Source: Escherichia coli
GTDB taxonomy: Bacteria > Pseudomonadota > Gammaproteobacteria > Enterobacterales > Enterobacteriaceae
Length of the DNA: 64,000 nucleotides
Assembly: GCA_009729775.1 (NCBI GenBank)
Contig: GCA_009729775.1_4081.1
Strand: one strand, 5' to 3'
Below the pieces are notes generated by a model. The model did not search any database. It was given only the letters and a program-made list of their open reading frames with translations, and was not told the DNA's origin. Both the position numbers and the translations under genes were made by a program. Shown one piece after another: positions 12,019 to 63,972 of the stretch; the first letter of the stretch is position 1; the number at the start of each line of letters is the position of its first letter.

Positions 12019-12020
12019 AA

Positions 12021-14940: not shown

Positions 14941-14970
14941 AAAAAGGGACCAACATATGATCCCTTTTGT
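14941..14970 (-). terminator. possible weak terminator after pseT
   Basis: A5-GGGA-loop-TCCC-T4; short stem, low confidence. Confidence 0.3.
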
Positions 14971-14971
14971 A

Positions 14972-15904: not shown

Positions 15905-15916
15905 TATTACTCCTTG

Positions 15917-16231: not shown

Positions 16232-16237
16232 ATGTCC

Positions 16238-16492: not shown

Positions 16493-16706
16493 TAACTTTT
16501 CCTACTCCAAATCGTTTGGAGATTTTCACAAGTACAGATTCATCACAACGAATACTAGCTGTATCATTGGATGAACTGTACTTTAATGGGGTCCACTGTA
16601 ATTGAGATTCTTCTAGGAACTTGATACATCTGAAGTAATCTTTCAGAGAAAGAAATTTAACTACTGACATATCCTGAACAATACTATGCTGAACTTCAAC
16701 TTTCAT
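16476..16706 (-). CDS. small hypothetical protein
   Basis: 76 aa ORF. Confidence 0.4.
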   Translation of the reverse strand: MKVEVQHSIVQDMSVVKFLSLKDYFRCIKFLEESQLQWTPLKYSSSNDTASIRCDESVLVKISKRFGVGKVNEHSK

Positions 16707-16715
16707 ATGAACTCC

Positions 16716-16973
16716 TTATAGTGGATCAAATTTATTTTCACGTTTCGATGTATAGCGAGTTACATCATGTATTCTCGGCTTAACACCTTTTGGTTTCCTT
16801 TTCTTCTTGTATTCAGTACTACTACATCCGAAGGTATTCTCGATTCGTTTCTTACTTATCTTCACACCTTTCATTGAGCGTTTGTGCTGTAATTCATCGA
16901 TTTCTTCTTGTATTTTCCTGAACTCAGTCGGAGAAAGGGAACCGTCATTTTTATACTTAGGTTTAGCCATCAC
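16716..16973 (-). CDS. small basic Lys/Arg-rich protein (possible nucleic-acid binding)
   Basis: 85 aa, KKRKPKGVKPR; AAGGAG RBS. Confidence 0.5.
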   Translation of the reverse strand: MMAKPKYKNDGSLSPTEFRKIQEEIDELQHKRSMKGVKISKKRIENTFGCSSTEYKKKRKPKGVKPRIHDVTRYTSKRENKFDPL

Positions 16974-17000
16974 TTCTCCTTGTGCTTAGGCTAGATAGTA

Positions 17001-22088: not shown

Positions 22089-22284
22089 CATGAACACGCT
22101 CACAATTAAGGCAATAAATGCACTCAATGTCAGGTCGCCATGATTTATCAAAATCTTTGTGCTGTTCTTCGGTGTATTCTGCATCATCATTAATAGGGAA
22201 GAAATCACCAGCACCAGTCGCCCAGTCTGAATCTAAACGGAAACGAGCTAATTGAGTACTGTTACAATATGGACACTTATTCAA
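22084..22284 (-). CDS. zinc-ribbon protein
   Basis: 66 aa; CPYCNS...CIYCLNC. Confidence 0.5.
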   Translation of the reverse strand: MNKCPYCNSTQLARFRLDSDWATGAGDFFPINDDAEYTEEQHKDFDKSWRPDIECIYCLNCERVHD

Positions 22285-22561
22285 AATTTATTCCTTCTAA
22301 CTGATATACGTTTAATGAAAATGACCCACTATTATTATCGCATCTGAAACACAGTGTTAAAGAACCATTAAAACTAACTACATCCGTACAGATACATTTT
22401 TCACCATTGGATATGATAGATTTTCCTATATATAAATCTCTTACTATAGTACGGTAATGTTGCCATAAAAAATAATACACACTTTCATAGTACTCATCTT
22501 TTACATATGATAAGTATAAGAATTTATAAAATACTTGTATTTCCTTTAAGTTGTTTTTCAT
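22277..22561 (-). CDS. family C tandem paralog
   Basis: 94 aa; N-terminus EIQVFYKFLYLSY, then YIGKS...G.L.L. Confidence 0.5.
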   Translation of the reverse strand: MKNNLKEIQVFYKFLYLSYVKDEYYESVYYFLWQHYRTIVRDLYIGKSIISNGEKCICTDVVSFNGSLTLCFRCDNNSGSFSLNVYQLEGINFE

Positions 22562-22835
22562 TCTCCAACTCCAGTAAATTTACACCAATCCAATCAACAT
22601 CACTATCAGTACTTAATTCCAATCGTAGCTTACCGCTATGACTAACAATATCGCGGAATTTGTATATTTTATTATCACGAACTATACACAAATCATGGTA
22701 ATATTCATGTAATTCATCCAAAAACTTTATCCATACCGAACGATAGATTTCACCGTAGAGATATTCTCCAGCATCAACCGTAGCGTATTGGATATACAAA
22801 AATTTATATGTGAATTGTATATCATTTAATAACAT
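22524..22835 (-). CDS. family C tandem paralog
   Basis: 103 aa; N-terminus LLNDIQFTYKFLYIQY. Confidence 0.5.
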   Translation of the reverse strand: MLLNDIQFTYKFLYIQYATVDAGEYLYGEIYRSVWIKFLDELHEYYHDLCIVRDNKIYKFRDIVSHSGKLRLELSTDSDVDWIGVNLLELENEKQLKGNTSIL

Positions 22836-22845
22836 ATGTAACCTC

Positions 22846-23157
22846 TTATAAATTCACCAACTTCACAACTTTAATCTCGATAAATCCCCTATCGGTTATT
22901 TCAAGAAATTCAACATGGATAATCCCATTGTATGATTTAACTCCAGAGAACTCGAATATATCATTTCCGTCGATAAAAGTACTGTAATTCTTTTTTATAT
23001 ATTCACCTACTGAATCTAAGTACTCAATATATAAATCAATAAATGGTTGTTCTTTGTATGGGTTATGTGAACCTATTTTGTTACTAACAAGGTATACATC
23101 ATACAAATCATATAGGATCTTATAAGTGAATTGTATATCATTTAAATTTAATCCCAA
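22846..23157 (-). CDS. family C tandem paralog
   Basis: 103 aa; N-terminus LNLNDIQFTYKILYDLY. Confidence 0.5.
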   Translation of the reverse strand: MGLNLNDIQFTYKILYDLYDVYLVSNKIGSHNPYKEQPFIDLYIEYLDSVGEYIKKNYSTFIDGNDIFEFSGVKSYNGIIHVEFLEITDRGFIEIKVVKLVNL

Positions 23158-23414
23158 GGGAATATCTCCAACGGAATACTGGTAAATCCAAAATCAGTGT
23201 AGTACTGAACCTCAACTTTACCATCACGTCTAATGATTATATCAGAAAATTCTGCATGGTCATCACCAATAATAACAGTACTGAATTTTTTTTTAATCTT
23301 ACCACGAATCGTATGAATCATTTCAGTGCATGTGTCTTCTAGACTAGGGCTATCATTGTCGTGTGCTAAATCTCGAATAATCTTGTATGTTAGTAGGAAA
23401 TCTTTATAATTCAT
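23148..23414 (-). CDS. family C tandem paralog
   Basis: 88 aa; N-terminus MNYKDFLLTYKIIRDL. Confidence 0.5.
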   Translation of the reverse strand: MNYKDFLLTYKIIRDLAHDNDSPSLEDTCTEMIHTIRGKIKKKFSTVIIGDDHAEFSDIIIRRDGKVEVQYYTDFGFTSIPLEIFPWD

Positions 23415-23686
23415 ATGTCCACCAAATCTATACTATATCTTTCATTAGTATTACTATCTATAAATGATAGTACTAATTTACCACCAAAACTATTAACTTG
23501 TTCTATCTTCTGTTTTTTACCACGAATGATTATCTCACTATTAACAAAATATTCACGTATCATTATTAAGTGATTAATCCAGATAGTATGAGTGAATGTG
23601 TTTTCTCGTATTGTATTGAGATATCTTCCATTGTGATGTAAATCAAACAAAACACTGTATGTATATTGTAGAACTTTATAATTCAT
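23411..23686 (-). CDS. family C tandem paralog
   Basis: 91 aa; N-terminus MNYKVLQYTYSVLFDL; AAGGGGA RBS. Confidence 0.5.
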   Translation of the reverse strand: MNYKVLQYTYSVLFDLHHNGRYLNTIRENTFTHTIWINHLIMIREYFVNSEIIIRGKKQKIEQVNSFGGKLVLSFIDSNTNERYSIDLVDI

Positions 23687-24627: not shown

Positions 24628-24901
24628 GAAAATTAATCACATCTGCATGTGATAATGTATCATTACCTTCTAGTACATTAATGATAAACGGCACTTGGCG
24701 ATATAGTTCAGCCAAGAATTGTACCTCATCAGATGTGTAAGAATATCCCATAGGAACAACCTGTGCAGTCCAGTTTCCTAGAGTTTTGTTAGCAATAATT
24801 GCAACTACAGTATTACCTTTGTATTCAACATGGATGGAACGAAATCCTGATTGCTCATTTTGATCCCAAAGTACTGGATTGGTTTTGAACAGTACTGACA
24901 T
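24608..24901 (-). CDS. hypothetical protein
   Basis: 97 aa ORF. Confidence 0.45.
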   Translation of the reverse strand: MSVLFKTNPVLWDQNEQSGFRSIHVEYKGNTVVAIIANKTLGNWTAQVVPMGYSYTSDEVQFLAELYRQVPFIINVLEGNDTLSHADVINFLGNLHV

Positions 24902-24903
24902 AA

Positions 24904-25437
24904 TTATTTCCTCATGTATTTTATAACGTCTTCAAATAATTGTATTTTTAAGTCCTCGTCATTTCCAGGTAAAAACTCACGAAAACTAGCAAAATCTTCA
25001 TTTTTTGCGAAGTTACGCATTTGTGTTGAGCTATATTGACTTACATTACGGTCAATACCTGCCTGAATTGCTTTTATACTACAAAAATTATACAACTTAC
25101 CATTGTACATGTCAAGAGTTTTTTGAAAAGAATCAATACGGTCAGAACCACAAATGAAAAGAACATCTAAGTACTTTCCATCCAGTTCTCTCATTATATC
25201 AAATAGATTGTCTTCTGTGTAGATGTTCTCTTGCACTGAAGGATAGAATCCCTCTGTATAATACATTTTTAGTTCAGGTGGGAGTGGGTTTTTTATATTG
25301 TCAGTACTGGTGCTTAGATATATTTTTAAATCAGCATTGTACTGTTCTTGTAATGTTTTGGCCTTTTCAAAAACTAAACCATGTCCACGATGTACAGGAT
25401 TAATACGACCAAACGTTAATACACATGTTTCTTTCAT
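24904..25437 (-). CDS. nucleotidyltransferase (NMNAT/PPAT-like cytidylyltransferase fold)
   Basis: 177 aa; FGRINPVHRGH (HxGH motif) and SSTQMR (ISSTxxR-like). Confidence 0.6.
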   Translation of the reverse strand: MKETCVLTFGRINPVHRGHGLVFEKAKTLQEQYNADLKIYLSTSTDNIKNPLPPELKMYYTEGFYPSVQENIYTEDNLFDIMRELDGKYLDVLFICGSDRIDSFQKTLDMYNGKLYNFCSIKAIQAGIDRNVSQYSSTQMRNFAKNEDFASFREFLPGNDEDLKIQLFEDVIKYMRK

Positions 25438-41892: not shown

Positions 41893-41925
41893 TGTGATAT
41901 AACCCTTTACAATTAATATAAAGAG

Positions 41926-41955
41926 ATTATATCACAAAGAATCGGAGGGTGTCAA
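41926..41955 (-). promoter_or_regulatory. near-consensus sigma70 promoter (TTGACA-18-TGaTATAAT)
   Basis: Reverse complement reads CTTGACAccctccgattctttgtgaTATAAT about 30 nt before the ATG at 41892. Confidence 0.45.
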
Positions 41956-44153: not shown

Positions 44154-44704
44154 AATAGTTCCTTATACATATGATGTACTTTACAAATCTCATTATAGTA
44201 TTTCATATCAATGTCATTTGTATTAAAAACGGAAACAGACAATACTGCTAACTTATCAATTAAGTAATTATTATCGGCGTACTCTTTTAACTTATTGAAC
44301 ATATAGATGCATTTTATGCTTAATTCATCATGCAACACACTGTTCTGAAAAATATTCTCTTCAGTATTAGGAGATAAGTAATCTTCAATTATATACGATA
44401 AACTACTATCGCAATCTTTATAGATTGAAATTGATGGATGTAATGTGTCATACATTACACTAAACAGAACACCGTCATATGTGGATATTAAACTATTATT
44501 GGAAACAGTAGGATGATAATATTTCAGTACTGAAAACTTTGAACAATCAGTGCAGTAAAAATGATCCATCCCTCGACGACTTTCGTATGAGAATAGTTTA
44601 CTTGTATATTCAATCCCTTTGGTGCGACGGATTGTTTCATGCATTTCTGCACATTGCATTAAAATTACCATACGTTCAAACGCAATATCTAAATCATCGT
44701 ACAT
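44144..44704 (-). CDS. family A paralog
   Basis: motif TEENIFQNSVLHD. Confidence 0.6.
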   Translation of the reverse strand: MYDDLDIAFERMVILMQCAEMHETIRRTKGIEYTSKLFSYESRRGMDHFYCTDCSKFSVLKYYHPTVSNNSLISTYDGVLFSVMYDTLHPSISIYKDCDSSLSYIIEDYLSPNTEENIFQNSVLHDELSIKCIYMFNKLKEYADNNYLIDKLAVLSVSVFNTNDIDMKYYNEICKVHHMYKELLCQ

Positions 44705-44885
44705 AACGGATATCCTTCTTCAGCGAATTAATATATTCCAAAATAACTTGTTCCTGATATTGGGTTCCCAAGTACATCAGGACTTTCAACTCTTTGAATT
44801 CAGTACTATATGAGTCTGTTTGCATCATTCTAGTAGAATATATATTGAATAGTTTAGCAATGTCATTTTGGTCTATTATTTTCAT
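44694..44885 (-). CDS. family B paralog (embedded in family A array)
   Basis: 63 aa; motif LMYLGTQYQEQVILEYINSLKK. Confidence 0.5.
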   Translation of the reverse strand: MKIIDQNDIAKLFNIYSTRMMQTDSYSTEFKELKVLMYLGTQYQEQVILEYINSLKKDIRYVR

Positions 44886-45084
44886 ATATTCTCTTCTGGA
44901 TTAGTTCCTGTAAGTGCTGAATATAACCCTTCATTGCAACATCCTGTTTGTTAGAGCCAACGAAGAACAAGAGCTTAAAGTCATGGTAATCCATTTTTGG
45001 TTTAGTAGTGAACCATATGTCCCACACTGCACTCACAGTTCTCATGTATTCAATTCGATTAAATGTTTTTGAATACTTCATCAA
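44863..45084 (-). CDS. family B-like paralog (embedded in family A array)
   Basis: 73 aa; motif FFVGSNKQDVAMKGYIQHLQEL. Confidence 0.45.
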   Translation of the reverse strand: MMKYSKTFNRIEYMRTVSAVWDIWFTTKPKMDYHDFKLLFFVGSNKQDVAMKGYIQHLQELIQKRIYENNRPK

Positions 45085-45595
45085 TGTTAATCGCCAATAA
45101 GTTAATATACAAATTACTGTTAAATGCTATCTGCAATTCCATATAGAACTGAATGATAGCATAGTCAGGGTCAGTACACGATAGTTGAAAACACTGTTCG
45201 TCAAATGCATTGTAATTGTACTTAGGGATGTGAATTTCACGCTTCAAATCAGGTTGACCCCACTTCATCGCATACACACCAATGTTATTGTTCTTTTTCC
45301 TTTTCTTAAATGTTAATTGTTGAATATTTCCAGCGTTGTCTAGGAAAATAGTATTATTCGACACAGGTGCACCAATAGAAAACAATGATGTATCAATTAC
45401 GTGTGTCTCACGCACCTCACACTTCTGGAATGCCCCAGTACCCTGTAATACATAATGAAAATTGTACTTCTCATTAACAACAGTACTAGGATCGATTAAA
45501 CCAGTACTGCATTTTTTGAGTACTGGTACAATGGTGCGAATCTTTTTTGATAAATCTTGTAATGCATCAAAGTCATTGATGTTAACTTTCATCAC
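45059..45595 (-). CDS. family A paralog
   Basis: motif FDEQCFQLSCTD. Confidence 0.55.
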   Translation of the reverse strand: MMKVNINDFDALQDLSKKIRTIVPVLKKCSTGLIDPSTVVNEKYNFHYVLQGTGAFQKCEVRETHVIDTSLFSIGAPVSNNTIFLDNAGNIQQLTFKKRKKNNNIGVYAMKWGQPDLKREIHIPKYNYNAFDEQCFQLSCTDPDYAIIQFYMELQIAFNSNLYINLLAINIDEVFKNI

Positions 45596-46041
45596 TCGAA
45601 TGTAGCCTCTTCAGTAGTAACAAAATTGGTTAGTGTATCCAGTTCAGCAGTGTCAAGATAAAATACATCTAGTACAGATTTCTGATATATTACACTGAAT
45701 GTGCATAGATTGTCAAGTGTCCCTTGTTCATAAACAGTACTACCCTGGAAGTACCCTTCTTCAGTACTCAGGGATAAAATATCTGAAATTTTAAAAGATT
45801 CTTCAGTTGCATGTCTTTCTATATTAACTATATTGCCGTTTCGGTTCAATGAAATATAATCGTATGCTAACTCAATTAGACTATAATTATCCGCATTAGT
45901 GTCAAATAAAGCGACAATTTTTCGTCTCAATCTCTCATCGTGATCATGGTTTTCATCAGCTAAGTATTCAGGATTTTCTTTGAAGAATTTAACGACGCGT
46001 AGAATATCATTTGCTTTCTTGATTGCACTTTCGTAACTCAT
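45592..46041 (-). CDS. family A paralog
   Basis: motif TEEGYFQGSTVY; N-terminus MSYESAIKKANDIL. Confidence 0.6.
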   Translation of the reverse strand: MSYESAIKKANDILRVVKFFKENPEYLADENHDHDERLRRKIVALFDTNADNYSLIELAYDYISLNRNGNIVNIERHATEESFKISDILSLSTEEGYFQGSTVYEQGTLDNLCTFSVIYQKSVLDVFYLDTAELDTLTNFVTTEEATFE

Positions 46042-46346: not shown

Positions 46347-46660
46347 TATATTTCTATCTCAATGTAATCCTGTGTGATTAAGTAATTCCAATGATACTTC
46401 ACCTGCTTTTGTAATTCAATTAACGTAAAGAAGTTGATCGATTTATCCCACACGAGCGATTCCTGGAAAATAAATGATTCATGTTCATCGTAATAATCAC
46501 ACTCTAAAAAATCAGGTATATATTCACTATCGTGAATGTATTCAACAAATGAACTAGCTTGGCATTTCTTTACTACTAGTAATAATGAATTATCATGATC
46601 AAACAGATACAATAAACTAATTTCACCAGGGACGTACTGAACACTGAATAAGTTTTTCAT
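46346..46660 (-). CDS. family A paralog
   Basis: motif HESFIFQESLVWD. Confidence 0.6.
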   Translation of the reverse strand: MKNLFSVQYVPGEISLLYLFDHDNSLLLVVKKCQASSFVEYIHDSEYIPDFLECDYYDEHESFIFQESLVWDKSINFFTLIELQKQVKYHWNYLITQDYIEIEI

Positions 46661-47109
46661 TCTATACCTTCTGGATCTTTACGAAGTTCTTCGAAATCCA
46701 AATAAAATCGAGGACAGTTAACACTCTTTAAGTACCACATAATAACTAATGCTTCAAGTACTTCATCATCGTAAACAGTACTGTTTTGGAAGTAATACTC
46801 TTCACTATCCCACGGACCTTCCAGTACTTCATAATTCAAAATTAATGGTTTTTTGCGATTAATAAAACGAATGCTACCATTTTCAACATAACTAATAAAT
46901 TCTGCATCTCTATTGTATTCAGAAAACGATATAGGACTATTGGAATTCAACCCAAGAATAACCCTTACACCAACGGAGTTATTATACATTTCATCCTTGT
47001 AGTAGTTGCCGTTCTCGGCTTTGTACACTTCTTTGAACTTTCCTGCCTTTATATCGTCAAAGTATCCATGTAGTTCTTTTGCTTTTTCAAGAGCACTTTG
47101 TAATGACAT
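46657..47109 (-). CDS. family A paralog (subgroup MSLQSALEKAK)
   Basis: motif VLEGPWDSEEYYFQNSTVYDDEVL...WYLKS...FYLDFEE. Confidence 0.65.
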   Translation of the reverse strand: MSLQSALEKAKELHGYFDDIKAGKFKEVYKAENGNYYKDEMYNNSVGVRVILGLNSNSPISFSEYNRDAEFISYVENGSIRFINRKKPLILNYEVLEGPWDSEEYYFQNSTVYDDEVLEALVIMWYLKSVNCPRFYLDFEELRKDPEGIE

Positions 47110-47575
47110 TACCTTCTCCTACAGTATTCTCTACATATTCATAATCAAAATAGAAACTACTGGAGTCAATACTTTTGAAATACCACATAATTACAATAAC
47201 ATCTAATTCTTCTTCATTGTACAACGTACTATTCTGGAAGTAATATTCTTCACTATCCCACGGTCCTTCCAGTACTGAATAAGGAATGATAGTGTCATCA
47301 GCATCACTATCTGTGTTGTAGATGGTAATATCTTCATTACGACAATAACTAATGTACTGATTGTACATATGATATTCACAGTTATCACTGTCACCAGTAT
47401 CAGTGTGCAGTACTAATGTTTCTGCACATATCTCGGACTCGTCATAATCGTCACGGTCTTTTACAAAAAATTCAGTATCAGATGTTTTATATACACCTGG
47501 TACTGAACCTTCCTGTACCATAATCATGTACTCATGAATCTTCTTTGCTTCTTTCAATGCACTTTGTAATGACAT
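47087..47575 (-). CDS. family A paralog (subgroup MSLQSALKEAK)
   Basis: motif SEEYYFQNSTLYNEEEL...WYFKS. Confidence 0.65.
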   Translation of the reverse strand: MSLQSALKEAKKIHEYMIMVQEGSVPGVYKTSDTEFFVKDRDDYDESEICAETLVLHTDTGDSDNCEYHMYNQYISYCRNEDITIYNTDSDADDTIIPYSVLEGPWDSEEYYFQNSTLYNEEELDVIVIMWYFKSIDSSSFYFDYEYVENTVGEGNVITKCS

Positions 47576-48018
47576 TACAAATCCCCTGTACTTAAATATT
47601 CACATGCTCCCCAGTCAAGAAAGAATGGTTCAAAATTCAATTCCTTAAAGTACCACAACACAACCAAGGAATCAAGAATTTCTTGGTTAAAAATGAGACT
47701 CTGTTGGAAGTAATACTCTTCAGTACCCCACGGGCCATCAAGTACCCCGAAGTCAACAGGTGTATTTGTTGTGTCAAAAGTAATCTTAGTACCTGGAATA
47801 TATACAAAAAAATTAGTATATTGACTACATGAAGAGTACTGTATAGTATTGTCTTTATCCTGTCCCATAAGTAAAATATCATCAGAGTATGTCTTTATAC
47901 CTGATAGATAATACTCATCACCAAATGCACTTACTTTATCACCATAGAAACCACTTTTTATGTTATCGTGGAAGTGATGTATTCTGTGTGCTAGTTCAAG
48001 TGCACTTGCTAAACTCAT
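47575..48018 (-). CDS. family A paralog (subgroup MSLASALELAH)
   Basis: motif TEEYYFQQSLIFNQEIL...WYFKE. Confidence 0.65.
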   Translation of the reverse strand: MSLASALELAHRIHHFHDNIKSGFYGDKVSAFGDEYYLSGIKTYSDDILLMGQDKDNTIQYSSCSQYTNFFVYIPGTKITFDTTNTPVDFGVLDGPWGTEEYYFQQSLIFNQEILDSLVVLWYFKELNFEPFFLDWGACEYLSTGDL

Positions 48019-48485
48019 ATATCCTCTTTAATAACTCGTAGTAGATCCAAGTCCAAATAGAAGCTAGGACAATCTGTATTATTAAAGTACCACAGAATGA
48101 CAAGCTTGTCAAGTACATCTTCCTCGTAGATAGTATTCTGCTGGAAGTAGTACTCTTCACTTCCCCAGTCATTATCCAGTACTGAATACGGAAGATGTTT
48201 CTCTGCTGCACCAGATATAATGTCAGAATCTTGTATTAAAATATCAGCATCACGACAGAAGTACATGTAATTATCTTCCAAATTAACATCACACCCATTG
48301 AGTGTTGTTTCAGAAGAATCTAAGTTTTCTTCATACATGTGAATGTACTCACTACTGTCATCGTATCTCATTCGACAATATGATTTACCTTCCTTGAATA
48401 GATATCCATTAAGACAATTTGCTACAATTTCTTTGCTGCATAAATCAATTAACTTCGCAATCTCTAATGCTCTTTCTAAACTCAT
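48015..48485 (-). CDS. family A paralog (subgroup MSLERALEIAK)
   Basis: motif SEEYYFQQNTIYEEDVL...WYFNN. Confidence 0.65.
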   Translation of the reverse strand: MSLERALEIAKLIDLCSKEIVANCLNGYLFKEGKSYCRMRYDDSSEYIHMYEENLDSSETTLNGCDVNLEDNYMYFCRDADILIQDSDIISGAAEKHLPYSVLDNDWGSEEYYFQQNTIYEEDVLDKLVILWYFNNTDCPSFYLDLDLLRVIKEDI

Positions 48486-48486
48486 T

Positions 48487-48978
48487 TCAACCCCTGTTAA
48501 TACCGTTATCTACAGTTTTCTTTACGTATTTGTAATCGAAATAGAAGTTCCCAGAACCAATACTTTTAAAGTACCACATAATTATAATAACATCAAGTAC
48601 TTCATTATCATATACAGTACTTTGTTGGAAGTAATACTCTTCACTATCCCACGGACCTTCCAGTACTTCACTCGGAATTATAATGTCATTGGAATCGCTG
48701 TCAGTACTGTTGATGGTATCTGTATCATTAATATAGACCATGTACTCATTATGCATATTAATGAAGCATTCATAATCATTAGGGTCGGTATCTAGTATGC
48801 ACGTTTCTGTATCCAGTACGCACGTTTCTGTATCTGAGCAGTCATTATAAAGGAGGTTATCCGGTACATAATATTGAGTACTTGTGTCTTTGAAAACACC
48901 GTAAACTGAACCTTCTTTTGCCATATTCATGTACTCATGAATCTTCTTTGCTTTTTCCAATGAACTCTGTAATGTCAT
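48487..48978 (-). CDS. family A paralog (subgroup MTLQSSLEKAK)
   Basis: motif SEEYYFQQSTVYDNEVL...WYFKS. Confidence 0.65.
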   Translation of the reverse strand: MTLQSSLEKAKKIHEYMNMAKEGSVYGVFKDTSTQYYVPDNLLYNDCSDTETCVLDTETCILDTDPNDYECFINMHNEYMVYINDTDTINSTDSDSNDIIIPSEVLEGPWDSEEYYFQQSTVYDNEVLDVIIIMWYFKSIGSGNFYFDYKYVKKTVDNGINRG

Positions 48979-48987: not shown

Positions 48988-49347
48988 TCATATATTGAAA
49001 TAATAATTATTCGTTCTTGATGGGGATGGATTAAATACGTTTTCTTTTTCAAATCTCTTCATTTCATTTTGCAAAGAAACCATTTCTTCAAATGTACAGG
49101 AGTACTTATTCTTATCAAACACTAATGCAGCCTGAAATAGTTCACCATCGTCCAGTACTGTATAATCTATAAGACTCTCAGATTCATAGTCATAGTCGTC
49201 ATGTGATACATGAATAAATTTAAAACAAGAATCTTTGTAATGCATATATAAACTCAACTCATGTTCCGAGTCGCCCTTAATAAGATTACAGCACAAGTCC
49301 CATCCTTTAGGTAACTTATAATAGTACATAGAATAATCATATGTCAT
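48988..49347 (-). CDS. family A paralog (subgroup FQxxLVFDKK)
   Basis: motif DDGELFQAALVFDKNKYSCTFEEM. Confidence 0.6.
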   Translation of the reverse strand: MTYDYSMYYYKLPKGWDLCCNLIKGDSEHELSLYMHYKDSCFKFIHVSHDDYDYESESLIDYTVLDDGELFQAALVFDKNKYSCTFEEMVSLQNEMKRFEKENVFNPSPSRTNNYYFNI

Positions 49348-49700
49348 TCTTGAATTCCTAAATTGAATTTGTATTCTTGATTAATACTTGCATTGGGTTT
49401 ATGCAAAGCAGCATACTCTTTCATTTCATTTTGTATTGCAATAACTTCTTCAAATGTACACAAGTACTTCTTATCAAATACTAATGATTCTTGGAATAGT
49501 TCTGCGGTATCCATTAATGTATAGTCCGGCATATCTTGGTGTGGATACTGTAATGAACTGTAATCAATGAATGTAAATTTACCCTGAGTGTAATGAATAT
49601 ACTCATTTGCACTGTGCATTAAATCACCTTTGTTTAAATTACAAAAGTACTGATAACTGTGCTTGAAAGTATGTACTGATATTAAAAAATCAAATTCCAT
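49344..49700 (-). CDS. family A paralog (subgroup FQxxLVFDKK)
   Basis: motif DTAELFQESLVFDKKYLCTFEEV; N-terminal 27 codons duplicated at 50150..50231. Confidence 0.6.
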   Translation of the reverse strand: MEFDFLISVHTFKHSYQYFCNLNKGDLMHSANEYIHYTQGKFTFIDYSSLQYPHQDMPDYTLMDTAELFQESLVFDKKYLCTFEEVIAIQNEMKEYAALHKPNASINQEYKFNLGIQE

Positions 49701-50071
49701 CAGTACTCAACCTCTACATAAATAGATTCAGGAAACTTAGTCATATAATCTTCTGGATAGTTCTGCATTACTTTGATCATTTCTGCCTGTGTAGCACGGA
49801 CGTATTCAATTGGTGCTCCTGGTAAATTCCAGACAGTACTTTCCTGAAAGAATTCCTCTTCTGACAGTACTGTCAGATTTACAAAATCATTACGGTAATT
49901 TTTTGAATCATCATATGTGAAGATTTTAAAAGACCCATTTTCATATAGTACAAGAACAAAATGGGAGAATTTTTGTAATGCACCACCAAGGCTTTCCACG
50001 ACCGCATGATTCAGTGTACAGATGACCTCTTTTTTCCTCATACCGAATTGAATTCTAATTTCTTTTTTCAT
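49700..50071 (-). CDS. family A paralog
   Basis: motif SEEEFFQESTVWN. Confidence 0.6.
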   Translation of the reverse strand: MKKEIRIQFGMRKKEVICTLNHAVVESLGGALQKFSHFVLVLYENGSFKIFTYDDSKNYRNDFVNLTVLSEEEFFQESTVWNLPGAPIEYVRATQAEMIKVMQNYPEDYMTKFPESIYVEVEY

Positions 50072-50229
50072 AAAATCTCCTTCAGATTAGTACTGAATTT
50101 GTACAGAATATTAGAACTGTATACAGCCTCTGTATCTGTATCCATAATCAAATCACCTTTGTTTAAATTACAAAAGTACTGATAACTGTGCTTAAAAGAA
50201 TGTACTGATATTAAAAAATCAAATTCCAT
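50068..50229 (-). pseudogene. chimeric N-terminal fragment of a family A gene (53-codon ORF)
   Basis: First about 27 codons (MEFDFLISVHSFKHSYQYFCNLNKGDL) near-identical to the start of 49344..49700, then unrelated sequence to an early stop; lies inside an 82-bp direct repeat. Confidence 0.45.
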
Positions 50230-50606
50230 CACTCTTCCCCTAGATTGAAATGATTACAAAAATCATCTTCACCAGTACTGCACCAGATGTCTATACATTC
50301 TCTGTGAATACATTTAATTCTACGCTGTAATTCAATCATCTCTTCTAATGTACAGATGTACTTCTTATCAAATACTAATGCCGCCTGAAACAGTGCAGCA
50401 TCATCAAGTACTGTATAGTCCAACATCTCGGTTGCTTTACCCCTAAACCCAGTACTAAAATCCATCAAATAAAAGTCAGCATTCCAGTACTTTAAAATCT
50501 TGTCCCTAGCGTAGTTTAAATCACCCTTGTATAAGTTAGAGTGCGTAACTAACTCACCAGTGTACATCCATGTCCTTGCACAAAATTCATTATATTTTAT
50601 TTCCAT
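50229..50606 (-). CDS. family A paralog (subgroup FQxxLVFDKK)
   Basis: motif DDAALFQAALVFDKKYICTLEEM; start trimmed to MEIKYNEF. Confidence 0.55.
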   Translation of the reverse strand: MEIKYNEFCARTWMYTGELVTHSNLYKGDLNYARDKILKYWNADFYLMDFSTGFRGKATEMLDYTVLDDAALFQAALVFDKKYICTLEEMIELQRRIKCIHRECIDIWCSTGEDDFCNHFNLGEE

Positions 50607-50801
50607 CTTAATCTCTACTATAATTAATAAGGTAAACTCCAATATAAGGAGAACGTTCGGCGGCGGGGTATTTTTTGTTTCAAGAAACATGAACTGTACT
50701 CTGAAAAACACAATATAAAACTTTATATTAAACATATACCTTAGCATGTTTTTCAGCGGAAATTTTTTTGACCCCCTGCGGCCTGTCAAAATGAAACGTC
50801 T

Positions 50802-57298: not shown

Positions 57299-57688
57299 CT
57301 AATCGTGCCATTTAATAGGATACTCCTTTCCTTGTACTACATAAGATATAATCCATCCGTAATGAATAGGACTATTCTTTTCTCCTTTAGGAATAAAATA
57401 TAAAGATGTACTAGGATTATAACTGAATAAATCATTATTGTCAAATGTAAAATGAGATAACGTTATCTTCCTTGTACTTGGACTAATAACATTCTTAACA
57501 CCAAACACGGTATCTTGATATTTCTCTGAAAATTCAAACAATGCATCTGTAATTAAATCATTGAATTCTATACATAATGGTTTAAAAGAACCATCATTAT
57601 CTTTGAATTCCTTATATAAAGAGCTTCTTGTATTCAAAAGAAATATTACTTTTTTAAGATCCTGAACTATTTCTGGATTCATATTCAT
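57299..57688 (-). CDS. hypothetical protein
   Basis: 129 aa ORF. Confidence 0.5.
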   Translation of the reverse strand: MNMNPEIVQDLKKVIFLLNTRSSLYKEFKDNDGSFKPLCIEFNDLITDALFEFSEKYQDTVFGVKNVISPSTRKITLSHFTFDNNDLFSYNPSTSLYFIPKGEKNSPIHYGWIISYVVQGKEYPIKWHD

Positions 57689-57920
57689 TTATCTCATTCT
57701 GTATCTTAAGCATCAAAATTTGCATATTAATTTTTTGTACAAGGTGCTTGATAAATTTCTGTGCCATTTCTTCTTGTTCTTTTGTACCAAGATAAAATAA
57801 CAGATTAAATTCTGATAATCGCAAAGAAAAATCTTCATCACCACCCTTTAAACAAAAATCCCTGTACTTTGTAGCGTACAAATATTGGTTTACCTTTTTA
57901 TAATACCCTGTGTTTTGCAT
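57654..57920 (-). CDS. family B paralog
   Basis: motif LFYLGTKEQEEMAQKFIKHL. Confidence 0.55.
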   Translation of the reverse strand: MQNTGYYKKVNQYLYATKYRDFCLKGGDEDFSLRLSEFNLLFYLGTKEQEEMAQKFIKHLVQKINMQILMLKIQNEINEYESRNSSGS

Positions 57921-58108
57921 ACTATCTCCGTTCGCAACGAATTTATATAATAATGAACAAATTGTTCTTGTGAACGTGTTCCAAGAAAAATAAACATATC
58001 AAACTCTGTTGTTTTTAAATTCAATGCATCTTTTGTAAAATTCCTGTTGAATTCCCTGTACTTTTGGGTCTTCCATTCTTGATTAATTGTCTTGTATATC
58101 GATTTCAA
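57890..58108 (-). CDS. family B paralog
   Basis: motif FIFLGTRSQEQFVHYYINSL. Confidence 0.55.
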   Translation of the reverse strand: MKSIYKTINQEWKTQKYREFNRNFTKDALNLKTTEFDMFIFLGTRSQEQFVHYYINSLRTEIVCKTQGIIKR

Positions 58109-58411: not shown

Positions 58412-58753
58412 TTATACATAAATTTGATAGACATTTTGAACAAAATACTTTGGAAGACTACTATATGATATCATCTGCCTTTGTACTTCCTTCATCTCTT
58501 CCAATGTCAATCCCAAAGAATCATCGTGTACTATCATGTACTGAAACTCGTCTTCTTCAGAGATATCAAATAAATTCGGTACTGCAATTATATCAATACC
58601 TACCATCCAAAAAAAAGAATTATTACTTTTTCTGTACTCAAAAAAATTCAAAGAAGAACCACTCTGTAAATCAGATACCATAATGGAACATTCATCGTTA
58701 CGTACAATACAATTGAATTTACGCATTATCTCCACCTCTCTCCGTCTGTACAA
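58412..58753 (-). CDS. family A paralog
   Basis: motif SEEDEFQYMIVHD. Confidence 0.55.
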   Translation of the reverse strand: MYRRREVEIMRKFNCIVRNDECSIMVSDLQSGSSLNFFEYRKSNNSFFWMVGIDIIAVPNLFDISEEDEFQYMIVHDDSLGLTLEEMKEVQRQMISYSSLPKYFVQNVYQIYV

Positions 58754-59417: not shown

Positions 59418-59727
59418 TAGGCTCCTGTTTAGATTCTTTCATTAGTACTATCATCTTATGTACTAATGGCATAGGGAACTCTAAATCCCATACTAATGAT
59501 TCCTGGAAGTATTCCTCTGGTGATAAAGTACTTAAATCTTTAATATCAACGTGCTTGTATATTTTATTTTCGTAATTAACAAATGATATATATAAATCAC
59601 TAACATAAGAATCATAGGTAATTGTGAATGGCTTACCCTTGTAATCCATTACATCTCTACATAGACTACTTTTGATATATGTATGTTCAAATGATTTATA
59701 TACCTTGAGTTGTATATTAGTTTTCAT
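59383..59727 (-). CDS. family A paralog
   Basis: motif SPEEYFQESLVWD. Confidence 0.6.
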   Translation of the reverse strand: MKTNIQLKVYKSFEHTYIKSSLCRDVMDYKGKPFTITYDSYVSDLYISFVNYENKIYKHVDIKDLSTLSPEEYFQESLVWDLEFPMPLVHKMIVLMKESKQEPNGDYEEHTVEY

Positions 59728-59992
59728 ATTTCTCTTTATTAGCTTGTTTGGTTTTATAGTGAATTAAATCTATTAATGTAATCAAGTACAACTTCAAAAA
59801 GTACTCTTGATGGTTCGTACCTAATGATACAAAGAATTTATGCTCATAAATTAAAACCTGTTTCACTTCAAAAGGACACTTAATCCTCTGTATAGGTTTA
59901 AGTAAATGGTAGTACTTGTATAATCTATTATGCATTTCTAATTCAGATAGTACTTTCATATTAAACACATACTCCATTAGCTGTAGCATCAC
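59717..59992 (-). CDS. family B paralog
   Basis: motif FFVSLGTNHQEYFLKLYLITL. Confidence 0.55.
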   Translation of the reverse strand: MMLQLMEYVFNMKVLSELEMHNRLYKYYHLLKPIQRIKCPFEVKQVLIYEHKFFVSLGTNHQEYFLKLYLITLIDLIHYKTKQANKEKYEN

Positions 59993-60182
59993 GTAAAGCT
60001 GTCAAATACTTCTGTACTGCTTGCTCTTGCTTATTTGTACCTAAAAGTATATACATCCATAATTCACTGTAATGTACATCTTGTGTATAAGGGTTGTTGT
60101 AACTTTTTGATAATATAGCATCAAATTCAGATGCATGAACCCTTGTGAACTTAAGCATATCTTGTTGTGTTATGATTCTCAT
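59961..60182 (-). CDS. family B paralog
   Basis: motif YILLGTNKQEQAVQKYLTAL. Confidence 0.6.
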   Translation of the reverse strand: MRIITQQDMLKFTRVHASEFDAILSKSYNNPYTQDVHYSELWMYILLGTNKQEQAVQKYLTALRDATANGVCV

Positions 60183-60394
60183 ATCTTTTCCTGTATAAGC
60201 TTCTTAAGAATCTCAATATATGAATTAACAGTTCTCTCTTGATGCTGTGTTCCTAAGAGTGTCAGTACTATCATATCTGAACGCAAAAGATTTTTTTCAA
60301 GTTCACTTATATCAGTTCTTGAATCAAGTGCCATATATTTGTGATTATTCTTCCTGAATAGTGCCAAGTACTCTTGATTTGATATTTCCTTCAT
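60179..60394 (-). CDS. family B paralog
   Basis: motif VLTLLGTQHQERTVNSYIEIL. Confidence 0.6.
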   Translation of the reverse strand: MKEISNQEYLALFRKNNHKYMALDSRTDISELEKNLLRSDMIVLTLLGTQHQERTVNSYIEILKKLIQEKI

Positions 60395-60618
60395 AGTCTA
60401 TCCTTGATGCCATTTAAAAGTGCTCTAATATGCTCATTGACAAAACGCTCTTGGGAATCTGTGTTTAGAGTGAGAAGCATTCTTAAATCTGAACTTTTTA
60501 TATGATATTCTAAATCATTCTTTGATTCTCGCATAAGTTTCTGAAAGGATGAGAAGTGTAATCCCATGAGTTCAATGTATTCTGCTGTTCCTAGGGGTTT
60601 GTGTATATGTTTGTGCAT
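60391..60618 (-). CDS. family B paralog
   Basis: motif LLTLNTDSQERFVNEHIRAL. Confidence 0.55.
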   Translation of the reverse strand: MHKHIHKPLGTAEYIELMGLHFSSFQKLMRESKNDLEYHIKSSDLRMLLTLNTDSQERFVNEHIRALLNGIKDRL

Positions 60619-60830
60619 TTTAATTGTATTACCCTTTTGAGTGTATTAATGTAATTATACACATTGGCTTCTTGATAGTTAGTTCCTAGAGTAGCTTGAA
60701 CGTAGATTTCATTTAACTTAATGATTTTATCAGTATCTGGTAGTTTTGATGTGTTAATGGCAAATAACTTCAAAAACAGTCCATTTATGATTGTTAGGTA
60801 TTCTTCTTCTGTAATGATTTTCATTTGCAT
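60591..60830 (-). CDS. family B paralog
   Basis: motif VQATLGTNYQEANVYNYINTL. Confidence 0.6.
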   Translation of the reverse strand: MQMKIITEEEYLTIINGLFLKLFAINTSKLPDTDKIIKLNEIYVQATLGTNYQEANVYNYINTLKRVIQLKCTNIYTNP

Positions 60831-61036
60831 TTTCTCAGTACTGATTCTTTAAGTTCATTGATGTAGTCCTCAATGTATTGCTCTTGTAAGTTAGTTCCAA
60901 CATATAAAAGAACTCTTAAATCGGCTCTAAGTACTTCTTTGTCATCATCATCTATATCAGACAGTGTTATGTTTAAGAATTTACTTGCATTCTCTATAAG
61001 TAATATTACTGAATCACCTTCGCTTAAAATTTTCAT
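60821..61036 (-). CDS. family B paralog
   Basis: motif LLYVGTNLQEQYIEDYINEL. Confidence 0.6.
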   Translation of the reverse strand: MKILSEGDSVILLIENASKFLNITLSDIDDDDKEVLRADLRVLLYVGTNLQEQYIEDYINELKESVLRKCK

Positions 61037-61244
61037 AATCTCTTTTTGCTTTCCTCGCCAAAAGGTACATATACGATTCTTCGTATTGTGCTTGATAGTT
61101 TGTGTTTAAGAGTCGAAACAACTTCTGTTCTGCTAGAACGAGTTGCTTATCTTCATAACAACGATAGCGTATCAACTTTTTGTATTCGATGTTGATTACA
61201 TCCATTACTATAAGCCCATGTTCATCATCTGTCAAGTGTTTCAT
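61014..61244 (-). CDS. family B paralog
   Basis: motif FRLLNTNYQAQYEESYMYLL. Confidence 0.55.
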   Translation of the reverse strand: MKHLTDDEHGLIVMDVINIEYKKLIRYRCYEDKQLVLAEQKLFRLLNTNYQAQYEESYMYLLARKAKRDYENFKRR

Positions 61245-61470
61245 GTATCTTTTCCTTAATAGTGATTTTAAGAGATTTAATTATACGTTCAACGTGATAC
61301 TCCTGTCTATCAGTTCCAAGAAGGTATGGTAGTGCTTGGAATAGAGCTTCCGCATTCTTTTCCTCTGGGGTTTGGTTTGGATCATTAGGAAGTTGATTGG
61401 CATATCTCTTGGCACTAACTAATCTCTCGACGTATTCATTATATGTTAAGTATATCATTTCATTTTGCAT
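61225..61470 (-). CDS. family B paralog
   Basis: motif LPYLLGTDRQEYHVERIIKSL; close paralog of the next gene. Confidence 0.6.
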   Translation of the reverse strand: MQNEMIYLTYNEYVERLVSAKRYANQLPNDPNQTPEEKNAEALFQALPYLLGTDRQEYHVERIIKSLKITIKEKIHETLDR

Positions 61471-61696
61471 TTACTTTTTCCTTAATAGTAATTTTAAGAT
61501 ATTTAATTATACGTTCAATGTGATACTCTTGCCTATCAGTTCCAAGAAGGTATGGTAATCTTTGGAATAAAACTTCTGCACTCCTTTCTGCTGGGGTTTG
61601 GTTTGTGTTGTGAGGAAGTTTATTTGTAAGTCTTTTGGATTTATCTAGTCTTTCTGTTAACTCATCATGTGTTAAGTATATCATTTCCTTTTGCAT
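61460..61696 (-). CDS. family B paralog
   Basis: motif LPYLLGTDRQEYHIERIIKYL. Confidence 0.6.
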   Translation of the reverse strand: MQKEMIYLTHDELTERLDKSKRLTNKLPHNTNQTPAERSAEVLFQRLPYLLGTDRQEYHIERIIKYLKITIKEKVNAK

Positions 61697-61923
61697 TTAA
61701 TGTTCCTTACGTAAATTGTCTGGATTAAACAATCAATCCACGTTTGAATATATTGGTTTTGATACTGTGTGCCTAAAAGACTCTGCATTTTAAACTCTGC
61801 TTCAAGTTCATATCTCTTTTCTATAGAAAAGCTTAAATGACCATATTCCCTATCGTATCTTCTATGAGCTTCGCCAAGTCTATCAAATCTTTCTGATAAT
61901 CTGATGTTATTAATTTTATTCAT
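61681..61923 (-). CDS. family B paralog
   Basis: motif MQSLLGTQYQNQYIQTWIDCL. Confidence 0.6.
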   Translation of the reverse strand: MNKINNIRLSERFDRLGEAHRRYDREYGHLSFSIEKRYELEAEFKMQSLLGTQYQNQYIQTWIDCLIQTIYVRNIKCKRK

Positions 61924-62210
61924 CGCTCAGTACACCTTAGTGGACGGGTCATTTGATAAAAGTACAGCTTACCTCTGATTTCCATTAGTAATTCATTTAA
62001 TACGCGTTCTACCTCTTGTTCTTGATAGTTCGTGCCTAACAATGCACCCATCTTTAACTCACGCATCATAATCATCTTCTTACTGTGTTGAATTTCTGGG
62101 TTGTGATAGATTGTATTACGTTTAAGAGTAATTTTTGCCATACGCTCGGTATATTCATCTTTACTTAAATTAATCATTTTCATGTTAATTACCCTTACAT
62201 TTATTTTCAA
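61920..62210 (-). CDS. family B paralog
   Basis: motif MGALLGTNYQEQEVERVLNEL. Confidence 0.6.
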   Translation of the reverse strand: MKINVRVINMKMINLSKDEYTERMAKITLKRNTIYHNPEIQHSKKMIMMRELKMGALLGTNYQEQEVERVLNELLMEIRGKLYFYQMTRPLRCTER

Positions 62211-62415
62211 TACTATTCATGAGTTCTATAAGATAGTTTTCTACCTTACCTTCCTGATAGTTAGTCCCTAGGAAGTTGCACAACACGGCTTCTATAATTT
62301 TGATTTTCCTGATATCCGACTTCAATCTTTTGTTATTGAATATTTGAATCCTTATATCTCTGGATGCATTTAAACGTTTTTGATAGTCATGGTAAGTTAA
62401 ATGAATCATTTTCAT
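62185..62415 (-). CDS. family B paralog
   Basis: motif LCNFLGTNYQEGKVENYLIEL. Confidence 0.6.
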   Translation of the reverse strand: MKMIHLTYHDYQKRLNASRDIRIQIFNNKRLKSDIRKIKIIEAVLCNFLGTNYQEGKVENYLIELMNSIENKCKGN

Positions 62416-62630
62416 TTACGTTTAACCTCTCGCTGGAGGGCATCAATTAACATTAGTACAGCATTCTCTTGATAGTTTGTTCCTAAGACTGAAAGCATCT
62501 TTATCTCATTTACTAAAATCAACTTCTTTGAGGGTTCAATAATGTGACTATCATAAACGGCCTTACGTGCTGGATAAGTTTTCGCCAGTATAACATAAAA
62601 TTCGTCTTTACTTAAATTAATCATTTGCAT
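62412..62630 (-). CDS. family B paralog
   Basis: motif LSVLGTNYQENAVLMLIDAL. Confidence 0.6.
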   Translation of the reverse strand: MQMINLSKDEFYVILAKTYPARKAVYDSHIIEPSKKLILVNEIKMLSVLGTNYQENAVLMLIDALQREVKRK

Positions 62631-62839
62631 TTACTTTTAACCTCTTTCTGTAGAGCGTCAATCCATAGATCTACATACATTTGTTGATAGTTTGTGTCTA
62701 TTAGTGCACCTACATAGAGTTCAGCTACCATTGCGTGCTTTATGTCAATAGGGATGCTCTTATCAGATTGAATCTTTCTCCTTCTGCTTCCACATGTTTT
62801 CAGGAGCCTGATGTATTCAAAACCTTGTAAATTTCTCAT
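62621..62839 (-). CDS. family B paralog
   Basis: motif GALIDTNYQQMYVDLWIDAL. Confidence 0.55.
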   Translation of the reverse strand: MRNLQGFEYIRLLKTCGSRRRKIQSDKSIPIDIKHAMVAELYVGALIDTNYQQMYVDLWIDALQKEVKSKCK

Positions 62840-63051
62840 ATTTTGGATACCACCTTGTTACGTAAGGAACTTAATAATACGTCAGTGTAGATGTTTTGAT
62901 AGTTTGTTCCTACGAATGCACCCAACTTCATTTCAGCTATTATAACACATTTGTCCTCTTGTGCAATAGACTTGTCTAAAGAAATACTAACAACTTTCCC
63001 TCTTATAGTTTGTAACCTCCAATGATACTGATACTCATTAAGGATTATCAT
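62836..63051 (-). CDS. family B paralog
   Basis: motif GAFVGTNYQNIYTDVLLSSL. Confidence 0.6.
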   Translation of the reverse strand: MIILNEYQYHWRLQTIRGKVVSISLDKSIAQEDKCVIIAEMKLGAFVGTNYQNIYTDVLLSSLRNKVVSKI

Positions 63052-63298
63052 TCTCTCGTCTCCAGATTTCGGTTCTCATGTGTTGGCAGTGTGCATCAAT
63101 ATATTGCTCTATCGATCTGGCGATTGCTGTTTTATCAGTGCCTGTCATCAGTACAAGCATCTCTGCCTCACTATGAATTAAACGCATGATATCATAGGGT
63201 AATATTTCAGATACTGTATCATAGTGTTTGTGTGTCAGTGTCTGCAATAGTTTACAATACATTTTGTGATTTAGTCTTTGTCGCATTGTTTCTTCCAT
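63038..63298 (-). CDS. family B-like paralog (divergent)
   Basis: motif LVLMTGTDKTAIARSIEQYIDA. Confidence 0.45.
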   Translation of the reverse strand: MEETMRQRLNHKMYCKLLQTLTHKHYDTVSEILPYDIMRLIHSEAEMLVLMTGTDKTAIARSIEQYIDAHCQHMRTEIWRRENDNP

Positions 63299-63543
63299 TC
63301 TCTTCTGGCTTGACGGGTTTTTTCTGATATTTCGTTTCTCAATGCAGAGATATATCGTAGAGTGAACAGTTCTTGATAGTTAGTCCCTATGAATTTATTA
63401 AGATATACATCAGCGTTGACGATATCAGCTTCACGGGAATTATAAAGTTTATTGTTCGTGCGAAGGGTGTTTAGAAGAGAGAAGAGGGCAGTCTGATACT
63501 CAGTGCTTGATAAAGTTTTCATATTTTTCCACAATTCGTTCAT
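63271..63543 (-). CDS. family B paralog
   Basis: motif NKFIGTNYQELFTLRYISAL. Confidence 0.6.
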   Translation of the reverse strand: MNELWKNMKTLSSTEYQTALFSLLNTLRTNNKLYNSREADIVNADVYLNKFIGTNYQELFTLRYISALRNEISEKTRQARREWKKQCDKD

Positions 63544-63757
63544 TTAGTTTTATCTGTATAAGATCCATTAGTTGTTCAAGATAATCGGTACAATATTTCT
63601 CTTGATATTGGGTTCCCACAAAGTACAGCAACCATAGCTCATGAACTTTAACTTTCATCTCGTTCCATGAAAGTGCATCGTCATCGTAGATTACTCTTGC
63701 TTCTGGGGTGAGCTTTCTAACTCTAATTGAATATTCATCGTCAGTTAAGTGTTTCAT
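63500..63757 (-). CDS. family B paralog
   Basis: motif LLYFVGTQYQEKYCTDYLEQL. Confidence 0.6.
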   Translation of the reverse strand: MKHLTDDEYSIRVRKLTPEARVIYDDDALSWNEMKVKVHELWLLYFVGTQYQEKYCTDYLEQLMDLIQIKLNERIVEKYENFIKH

Positions 63758-63972
63758 TTACATTTATCCCTTATTAGATTTGTGAGGGCAACTATGTGTG
63801 CAACAACATACTCTTCCTGAAAGTTCGTCCCCAGTACAGCCATCATGCGTATATCGGTGGTGTTTATCCTGTGTTCCCTTACACATAAACCTTCTTTGTG
63901 AGGAAGTGTAAAATATTTGTTTATTGCAGCAATGACAATTTTATTCTTCTCGGTGATACTTAAATGTTTCAT
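63754..63972 (-). CDS. family B paralog
   Basis: motif MAVLGTNFQEEYVVAHIVAL. Confidence 0.6.
   Translation of the reverse strand: MKHLSITEKNKIVIAAINKYFTLPHKEGLCVREHRINTTDIRMMAVLGTNFQEEYVVAHIVALTNLIRDKCK

Follow-up and report, generated by a model that had tools for sequence, protein, structure and literature searches.

The genome papers of RaK2 and CBB reported paralogs as about 10% of the gene products, or as 22 open reading frames (ORFs), and gave nothing more specific. In CBB, a run of short hypothetical ORFs beside the terminal repeat holds 11 of the 18 predicted RpoD-like promoters, and the authors proposed this stretch as an early host-takeover region (PMC5259590). The genome termini of phage fEgEco12 were confirmed experimentally and carry terminal repeats of 20,993 bp (PMC13070987). 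The equivalent of the CBB run is described here from a stretch of 64,000 nucleotides filed under Escherichia coli (NCBI GenBank assembly GCA_009729775.1, contig GCA_009729775.1_4081.1), the whole of which is called the window. Five consecutive genes at 46657–48978, named copies A to E, are its subject. They are the most coherent sub-cluster of a lineage-specific family of small (about 100–220 amino acids (aa)), mostly acidic, non-virion proteins of Rak2-like jumbo phages. Literature searches on 121Q, PBECO4, RaK2, CBB, phAPEC6, Sharanji, fEgEco12, and Asteriusvirus turned up no description of this family.

The 45–51 kb part of the window showed 98–99% nucleotide identity to the Escherichia jumbo myoviruses SHEFM2K, G17, BF17, phAPEC6, and PBECO4, and 94% to 121Q. 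By sequence, the window comes from a 121Q/PBECO4/G17-type jumbo coliphage of the genus Asteriusvirus, whose genomes are about 350 kb. Its composition is about 32% G+C, and the minus strand carries almost all genes. The five genes, and a repeat within the last of them found with Tandem Repeats Finder (TRF), are as follows.

46657–47109, minus strand: copy A, 150 aa, net charge –10; matches phrog_9317 at E 8e-60
47087–47575, minus strand: copy B, 162 aa, net charge –26; its closest paralog is copy E (58%)
47575–48018, minus strand: copy C, 147 aa, net charge –14; diverges most within the set (30–32% identity to the rest)
48015–48485, minus strand: copy D, 156 aa, net charge –21; 10 residues are inserted behind the N-terminal helix
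48487–48978, minus strand: copy E, 163 aa, net charge –20; Asp/Thr/Ser-rich loops at residues ~41–60 and 91–100
48788–48834, minus strand: 21-bp tandem repeat within copy E, 2.2 copies; encodes DTETC[VI]L twice

The five paralogs, the FQ-motif family and its predicted fold

A sequence-only reading of the window had claimed five consecutive close paralogs, recently expanded in tandem. All five ORFs were located precisely where it placed them, and BLASTP among them (E 1e-24 to 1e-56) proved that they are true paralogs. Three common blocks are present in every copy, namely the N-terminus M[ST]Lx[SR][AS]L[EK]xA[KH], the stretch VL[ED]GPW[DG][ST]EEYYFQ[NQ][SN][TL], and WY[FL][KN]...F[YF][LF]D. The phrog_9317 hidden Markov model (HMM) was matched full-length by all five (E 2e-55 to 9e-66, profile positions 1 to 155–158 of 160). 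At the DNA level, the 3′ parts of the genes form a 5-copy, 145-nt direct repeat family with 65–78% identity. The word "close" was too strong, as pairwise aa identity is merely 30–40% and the B–E pair alone reaches 58%. The orthologs of the five genes in phAPEC6 are gp438c–442c, that of copy A being gp438c.

The run of five is genuine, but it is not the entire set. An HMM from the five copies was iterated against all window ORFs of at least 40 aa and converged on 37 ORFs, all on the minus strand, at 30752–59727. Reversed and shuffled controls for this search gave zero matches. The core motif, [ST]xEExxFQxS[TL][VIL][YFWH] with a long helix following, is present in 37 of the 37 members and is called the FQ motif here. 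Used as a regular expression, it adds eight members and brings the family to 45 of the 69 genes of 30752–59727. The same census elsewhere found it in none of 63 upstream genes and in 1 of 206 off-frame ORFs. In copy A the motif is DSEEYYFQNSTV (residues 101–112, encoded around 46775–46803). Its F107 and Q108 occur in every sequence of a 34-sequence alignment, and its S110 in at least 90% of them; identity to copy A is 11–25% in this alignment. The MSLQSALEKAK-type N-terminus of the five is not conserved in the other 40 members. The array and its parts nearest to the five genes are listed below.

30752–59727, minus strand: tandem FQ-motif array, 37 HMM and 8 motif-only members among 69 genes, with copies A to E inside
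45592–46041, minus strand: nearest long-form member outside the five, phrog_12674, 149 aa, motif STEEGYFQGSTV; BLAST clustering groups it with the five
48988–50789, minus strand: short-form sub-cluster adjoining the five, looser (48988–49347, 49344–49700, 49700–50071, and 50229–50789); 39% identity, E 1e-18 to 1e-24

By BLASTP, the five genes are the only tight sub-cluster of the array. The short-form members do not have the N-terminal helix, and their motif reads D[DT][GA][EA]LFQ[AE][AS]LVFD. The array genes are divided by PHROGs into at least six families (phrog_9317, 12674, 13866, 15629, 30243, and 32253), all of "unknown function" and connected by weak cross-hits. These families are unified here into one superfamily by the iterated profile, the invariant motif, and a common predicted fold. 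The genes are tightly packed, with overlapping stop and start codons. The immediate neighbour is the best paralog for 7 of 44 members, versus 2.1 ± 1.6 by chance, a pattern that fits tandem duplication and long divergence thereafter.

In several members the motif reads EEGYFQ(G/S), for example at 45592–46041 (STEEGYFQGS) and in the RaK2 locus L013 at 24823–25314. The recognition consensus of tobacco etch virus (TEV) protease is E-x-x-Y-x-Q-(G/S). A role of the motif as a 3C/TEV-like cleavage site was considered and rejected; the residue after Gln is highly variable, the motif lies in a confident helix rather than in a loop, and the similarity is probably a coincidence. It is nevertheless relevant when proteins of this family are purified with TEV-cleavable tags.

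The distribution of the family is narrow. A HMMER profile search of 1.84 billion cluster representatives returned 124 proteins at E ≤ 1e-3, all of 39–210 aa. Contigs of about 350 kb carry all named family members; these belong to jumbo phages of E. coli and to the Klebsiella phages RaK2, K64-1, Muenster, and phiKp_21. The HMM counts 36 members in 121Q and 36 in A4. For RaK2 (genus Alcyoneusvirus), it gave at least 25 matches in a 50-kb slice, 25 of 25 with the motif. The RaK2 copies fill a co-oriented block of 29 kb, on the same side of dam, rnlA, and pseT as in the window. The five genes probably belong to an array that was already present in the common ancestor with RaK2.

AlphaFold2 models of copies A and E were built on the family alignment. 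The model of copy A has a predicted local distance difference test score (pLDDT) of 90.6 and a predicted template modelling score (pTM) of 0.85. It consists of a helix at 3–21, seven strands in 28–91, helices at 93–97, 103–109 (EEYYFQN), and 115–129, a strand at 135–138, and a helix at 140–144. The N-terminal helix has a pLDDT of 96, and the FQ-motif region is the most confident part with 97–98. Copy E was modelled with a pLDDT of 87.5 and the same order of elements. The models predict one alpha/beta domain common to the members, in which a seven-stranded sheet is followed by a short helix with the invariant Phe–Gln and by a long helix; the long forms have the N-terminal helix in addition. The Phe of the motif is probably buried. 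Among predicted viral structures in BFVD, the copy A model matches uncharacterised proteins of five phages only, namely 121Q (template modelling (TM) score 0.86), SP27, RaK2 (TM 0.62–0.63), GAP32, and Serratia phage BF. No solved structural relative was found, and a profile search of the Protein Data Bank (PDB) sequences was empty at E ≤ 10. The predicted fold is apparently new.

The sequence-only reading had pictured a conserved scaffold with a variable insert, and this is half right. A helical frame, made of the N-terminal helix and the FQ-bearing C-terminal helices, is indeed conserved, but the variable part is the entire beta-sheet subdomain with its loops. In the models the frame packs on a beta-sheet of conserved topology and very divergent sequence. 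Identity among the paralogs is 0.50 in helices, 0.30 in strands, and 0.28 in coil, and within the central segment it is 0.25 in strands and 0.19 in coil. Structure prediction had been suggested as a check for exposed variable loops. The Asp/Thr/Ser-rich stretches of copy E (~41–60 and 91–100) are low-confidence coil, but the strands vary too.

Age, selection and turnover of the array

The recent date of the expansion is unsupported. Synonymous sites are saturated in every paralog pair, with an overall synonymous divergence (dS) of 1.2 to infinity by the Nei–Gojobori method. The orthologs from ten other phages of the genus have dS values of about 0.06–0.6, and the order of the five genes is kept in 121Q (gp370–374), UE-S1, slurp01, BF17, EC.P1, and PBECO4. 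Therefore, the duplications are older than the radiation of the genus.

The one tract of low dS is formed by the first 22 codons of copies B and E (47510–47575 versus 48913–48978), with a dS of 0.23, whereas the remainder of the pair has at least 0.96. The A4 ortholog of copy E begins with a B-type N-terminus (MSLESALKEAKK...). Because of the low-dS tract and this B-like N-terminus, a short gene-conversion tract between B and E is suggested, although the sample is small and the signal is a hint. Beside the five genes, an 85-nt direct repeat with 96% identity lies at 49618–49702 and 50147–50231; the N-terminus of the ORF at 49344–49700 is re-duplicated there as a 54-aa ORF at 50068–50232. It is the sole truly recent (partial) duplication near the block.

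Ratios of non-synonymous to synonymous divergence (dN/dS) were determined among 9–11 orthologs per gene. They are 0.08–0.45 for the N-terminal helix, 0.18–0.57 for the central segment, and 0.14–0.37 for the C-terminal part, and four of the five genes have their highest value in the central segment. These ratios indicate purifying selection on every segment and on each retained copy, with a modestly relaxed centre.

The array as a whole turns over rapidly relative to its flanks. Against phage A4, the flanking genes have a median aa identity of 74–75%, while the family members drop to a median of 37%, a figure that comes mostly from paralog hits, and 7 of 45 match nothing. Copies C and D are 92–93% identical even in this divergent phage, and the ortholog of copy C shows 93% in A4 but 82% in 121Q. 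The ortholog identities form a mosaic, with 92 (A), 98 (B), 82 (C), 89 (D), and 94% (E) in 121Q and 68, 92, 95, 93, and 98% in EC.P1. Copy E is absent from fEgEco12 and ph0011 and is frameshifted in SD-1_S14. Its 21-bp repeat is a slippage-prone loop, with two units in most phages and one in UE-S1 and A4. The array grew by old tandem duplications followed by deep divergence, and it is still remodelled by gene loss, gene replacement, and loop slippage, probably also by short gene-conversion tracts. Foreign genes are found in the variable region as well. The A4 array harbours a 470-aa gene annotated as "methyl-accepting chemotaxis protein" (locus L016, 29131–30543), and HNH endonuclease genes stand just past it (L017, 4568–4945 and 6881–7189); these are examples of such insertions.

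The divergence of the centre had been read as a diversifying binding surface. The centre is in fact more divergent among the paralogs, with a mean pairwise identity of 0.21 versus 0.48 in the N-terminal helix and 0.49 in the C-terminal part, and with 30 gapped columns. Its length is 67–80 residues instead of the 40–60 proposed, and the Asp/Thr-rich composition noted for two copies holds for B and E, which are Asp/Thr/Ser-rich, and for D too. A recent tandem burst with a central binding surface under ongoing diversifying, that is positive, selection would explain this difference and the many indels, and it would also fit the top central dN/dS in four of five genes, the polymorphic repeat number of the loop, and the mosaic of ortholog identity. 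However, the paralog dS of at least 1.2 and the genus-wide synteny of the array contradict a burst, and central ratios of 0.18–0.57 mean purifying selection, with copies C and D at 92–93% in A4 and no repeat pair like that of a diversity-generating retroelement (DGR). Region-wise dN/dS is below 1 everywhere, and a diversifying surface was not demonstrated. Since the centre does exceed its flanks in diversity, the idea is weakened rather than killed, and we regard it as unlikely. Programmed hypervariation of the DGR type was considered separately and rejected. No template/variable repeat pair and no near-identical repeats with the central segments were found, in a survey that included no search aimed at a reverse transcriptase. 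Central segments are identical or nearly so between orthologs in genomes that are about 99% identical.

Expression, acidity and possible function

The phAPEC6 proteins gp348–gp548, which include gp438c–442c, contribute none of the 62 virion proteins identified by mass spectrometry (PMC7247149). Therefore, the family is non-structural as far as known, although virion proteins of low abundance could be missed in this proteome. In fEgEco12, the five-gene block lies at 38.8–40.6 kb on the plus strand and is transcribed away from the left end. Extrapolated from fEgEco12, the array would lie about 27.6–56.6 kb from the left physical end and be transcribed inward.

The window contains the extended –10 word TGATATAAT 12 times, where 4.0 ± 2.0 would be expected, and the coding strand holds 11 of these. 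Two of them are inside the array, at 41926–41934 and 58587–58595 on the minus strand. Several take the form GTGATATAAT, lie in gaps between genes, and are preceded by a –35-like hexamer, and the TGATATAAT sites are likely host sigma-70 promoters. Two promoter-like sites are relevant to the array.

41926–41955, minus strand: sigma-70-type promoter-like site in the in-array gap 41893–41951; TTGACA, 18 nt, TATAAT, with extended –10 TG
57416–57444, minus strand: putative site with 12 of 12 sigma-70 consensus positions (TTGACA, 17 nt, TATAAT), upstream of the five-gene block in the sense of transcription; weak evidence by itself

A terminator scan of 42–61.5 kb was unenriched over shuffles, and a scan of 30–64 kb with Rfam gave zero RNA families.

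The charge of the products is conspicuous. Copy B is the most acidic protein of the window per residue. By net charge, copies B, D, and E take places two to four among the 150 window genes; per residue they hold the first three. The family median is –9, versus –4 for the other window genes. We tentatively favour the reading that the array encodes an early battery of effectors for host takeover or anti-defence. In this scheme, host RNA polymerase would transcribe the array from sigma-70-type promoters into long polycistronic early messages, inward from the left genome end, and the products would work as a battery in the host cytoplasm. The helical frame with the FQ motif may provide the fold or a common docking site, and the divergent beta-sheet face with its acidic loops may provide target specificity. 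Copies B, D, and E, with net charges of –20 to –26, would be candidate nucleic-acid mimics or decoys.

Several points weigh against this proposal. Acidity is common among small phage proteins. Early expression is something we infer from position and promoter-like motifs, and a generic sigma-70 promoter scan of 42–61.5 kb was unenriched (102 sites versus 125.6 expected in shuffles). No positive selection was detected region-wise, though it could be expected for an effector family in an arms race. Pfam and NCBIfam gave nothing meaningful for the five copies and 34 family members. PADLOC-DB gave two isolated weak matches for the 34 members (E 0.002 and 0.04) and no defence or counter-defence assignment. 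The invariant FQ motif could also be purely structural.

The alternative of an adaptor family gives the motif another role. The FQ module would dock on one common partner, such as a phage ClpP- or ClpYQ-like protease, a host protease, or RNA polymerase, and the variable sheet would recruit targets. The window encodes a ClpP in a repair and proteolysis cluster at 4881–18143 on the minus strand, downstream of the array in terms of transcription.

4881–5576, minus strand: ClpP, in the same transcriptional direction as the array
6443–7246 and 10806–11564, minus strand: two metallophosphoesterases
7254–8672, minus strand: ATP-dependent DNA ligase
14972–15904, minus strand: PNKP
17001–18143, minus strand: T4-type RNA ligase 1

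Besides this ClpP gene, further ClpP-like and ClpYQ-like proteases are annotated nearby in 121Q, and the motif is invariant while the remainder of the proteins shares 11–25% identity. On the other hand, ClpP is about 25 kb distant, and with a pLDDT of 97–98 and a probably buried Phe, a structural role of the motif fits as well as docking. We consider the adaptor explanation improbable. The same low standing is given to its widest form, a modular adaptor/effector system of new fold in which the FQ helix docks on a shared machine and about 45 beta-sheet faces each capture a different host target, defence proteins included. If the adaptor reading were true, the targeting modules would form a fixed set encoded in the phage genome, comparable to the poxvirus ankyrin/F-box families.

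A role inside the virion is less credible still. In phage T4, the genes of the internal proteins IPI–III are polymorphic behind a conserved targeting peptide. By this model, copies A to E would be packaged internal or ejected proteins and MSLQSALEKAK would be a signal for capsid targeting or protease processing. Eleven conserved N-terminal residues on otherwise divergent proteins would suit this, and phAPEC6 has an inner body (PMC7247149). But gp348–gp548, with gp438c–442c among them, are missing from the virion proteome, the N-terminal helix (3–21) is integral to the predicted fold, and the N-terminus is unconserved in the other 40 members. For two of these reasons, the virion proteome and the structural part played by the helix, a T4-like capsid-targeting N-terminus was rejected, and the packaging explanation as a whole is highly doubtful.

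That the array is evolutionary debris, namely neutral or selfish duplicated ORFs of no organismal function, agrees with its varying copy content, the loss or frameshift of copy E in some phages, the replacement of most members in A4, and the lack of a known function, but it is very hard to reconcile with dN/dS well below 1 in the five genes, a motif and fold conserved across genera, tight packing with overlapping codons, and confidently predicted folds. The probability left after the effector battery and these alternatives belongs to something else.

The window contains other features around the array. PNKP and RNA ligase 1 are the classic tRNA-repair, anti-PrrC pair. A second tandem family, unrelated to the FQ family, comprises 20 ORFs of 63–96 aa with the motif LGTxxQE...I..L...I..K. 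A third tandem paralog family at 22277–23686 on the minus strand comprises five consecutive ORFs of 88–103 aa with (F/Y)TYK(F/I)LY near the N-terminus. The second family is placed as follows.

44694–45084, 57654–58108, and 59717–63972, minus strand: LGTxxQE-motif family, interleaved with the FQ array and extending past it toward the genome end

Comparison with known systems

About 8% of a 350-kb phage genome (29 kb, at least 45 genes) is occupied by one family that has neither an annotation nor a solved structural relative. In Rak2-like phages, over 80% of the genes are "hypothetical", and a superfamily defined by a single invariant motif collapses dozens of unknowns into one tractable question. 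If the host-takeover or anti-defence repertoire is true, it would help to explain how jumbo phages of therapeutic interest deal with the diversity of E. coli and Klebsiella hosts, and a new protein fold would join the counter-defence toolbox. If it is false, the array nonetheless illustrates neatly how a phage gene family expanded in tandem long ago and keeps turning over. Large viruses are known to carry tandem multigene families in their early or terminal regions, but this family, with its invariant FQ motif, its size, and its fold, seems not to have been described before.

The DNA mimics T7 Ocr, ArdA, and T4 Arn are small, cytoplasmic, and extremely acidic, and copies B, D, and E resemble them in these respects (net charge –20 to –26 over about 160 aa) and in being probably early. 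The fold of Ocr is all-helical. In contrast, the predicted fold of the FQ family is alpha/beta, and the acidity of copy A and of many further members is no more than moderate. The five copies gave no relevant Pfam-A match at E ≤ 1 that would indicate homology to Ocr or ArdA, whose models are believed, though not confirmed, to be present in Pfam-A. The T4 internal proteins IPI, IPII, and IPIII share with the five copies a short conserved N-terminus before a divergent body and a polymorphic locus. They differ in that the FQ proteins are absent from the phAPEC6 virion proteome, their N-terminus is a structural helix, and there is no homology.

The multigene families of large DNA viruses are comparable by analogy; the FQ family has no sequence or fold relationship with them. 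With the MGF360/505 genes of African swine fever virus (ASFV), the poxvirus ankyrin/PRANC and Bcl-2-like families, and the hyperplastic early regions of T4-like phages, the array shares dozens of diverged tandem paralogs near a genome end. Like these families, the FQ family is a non-structural, lineage-specific set whose copy content varies between close relatives.

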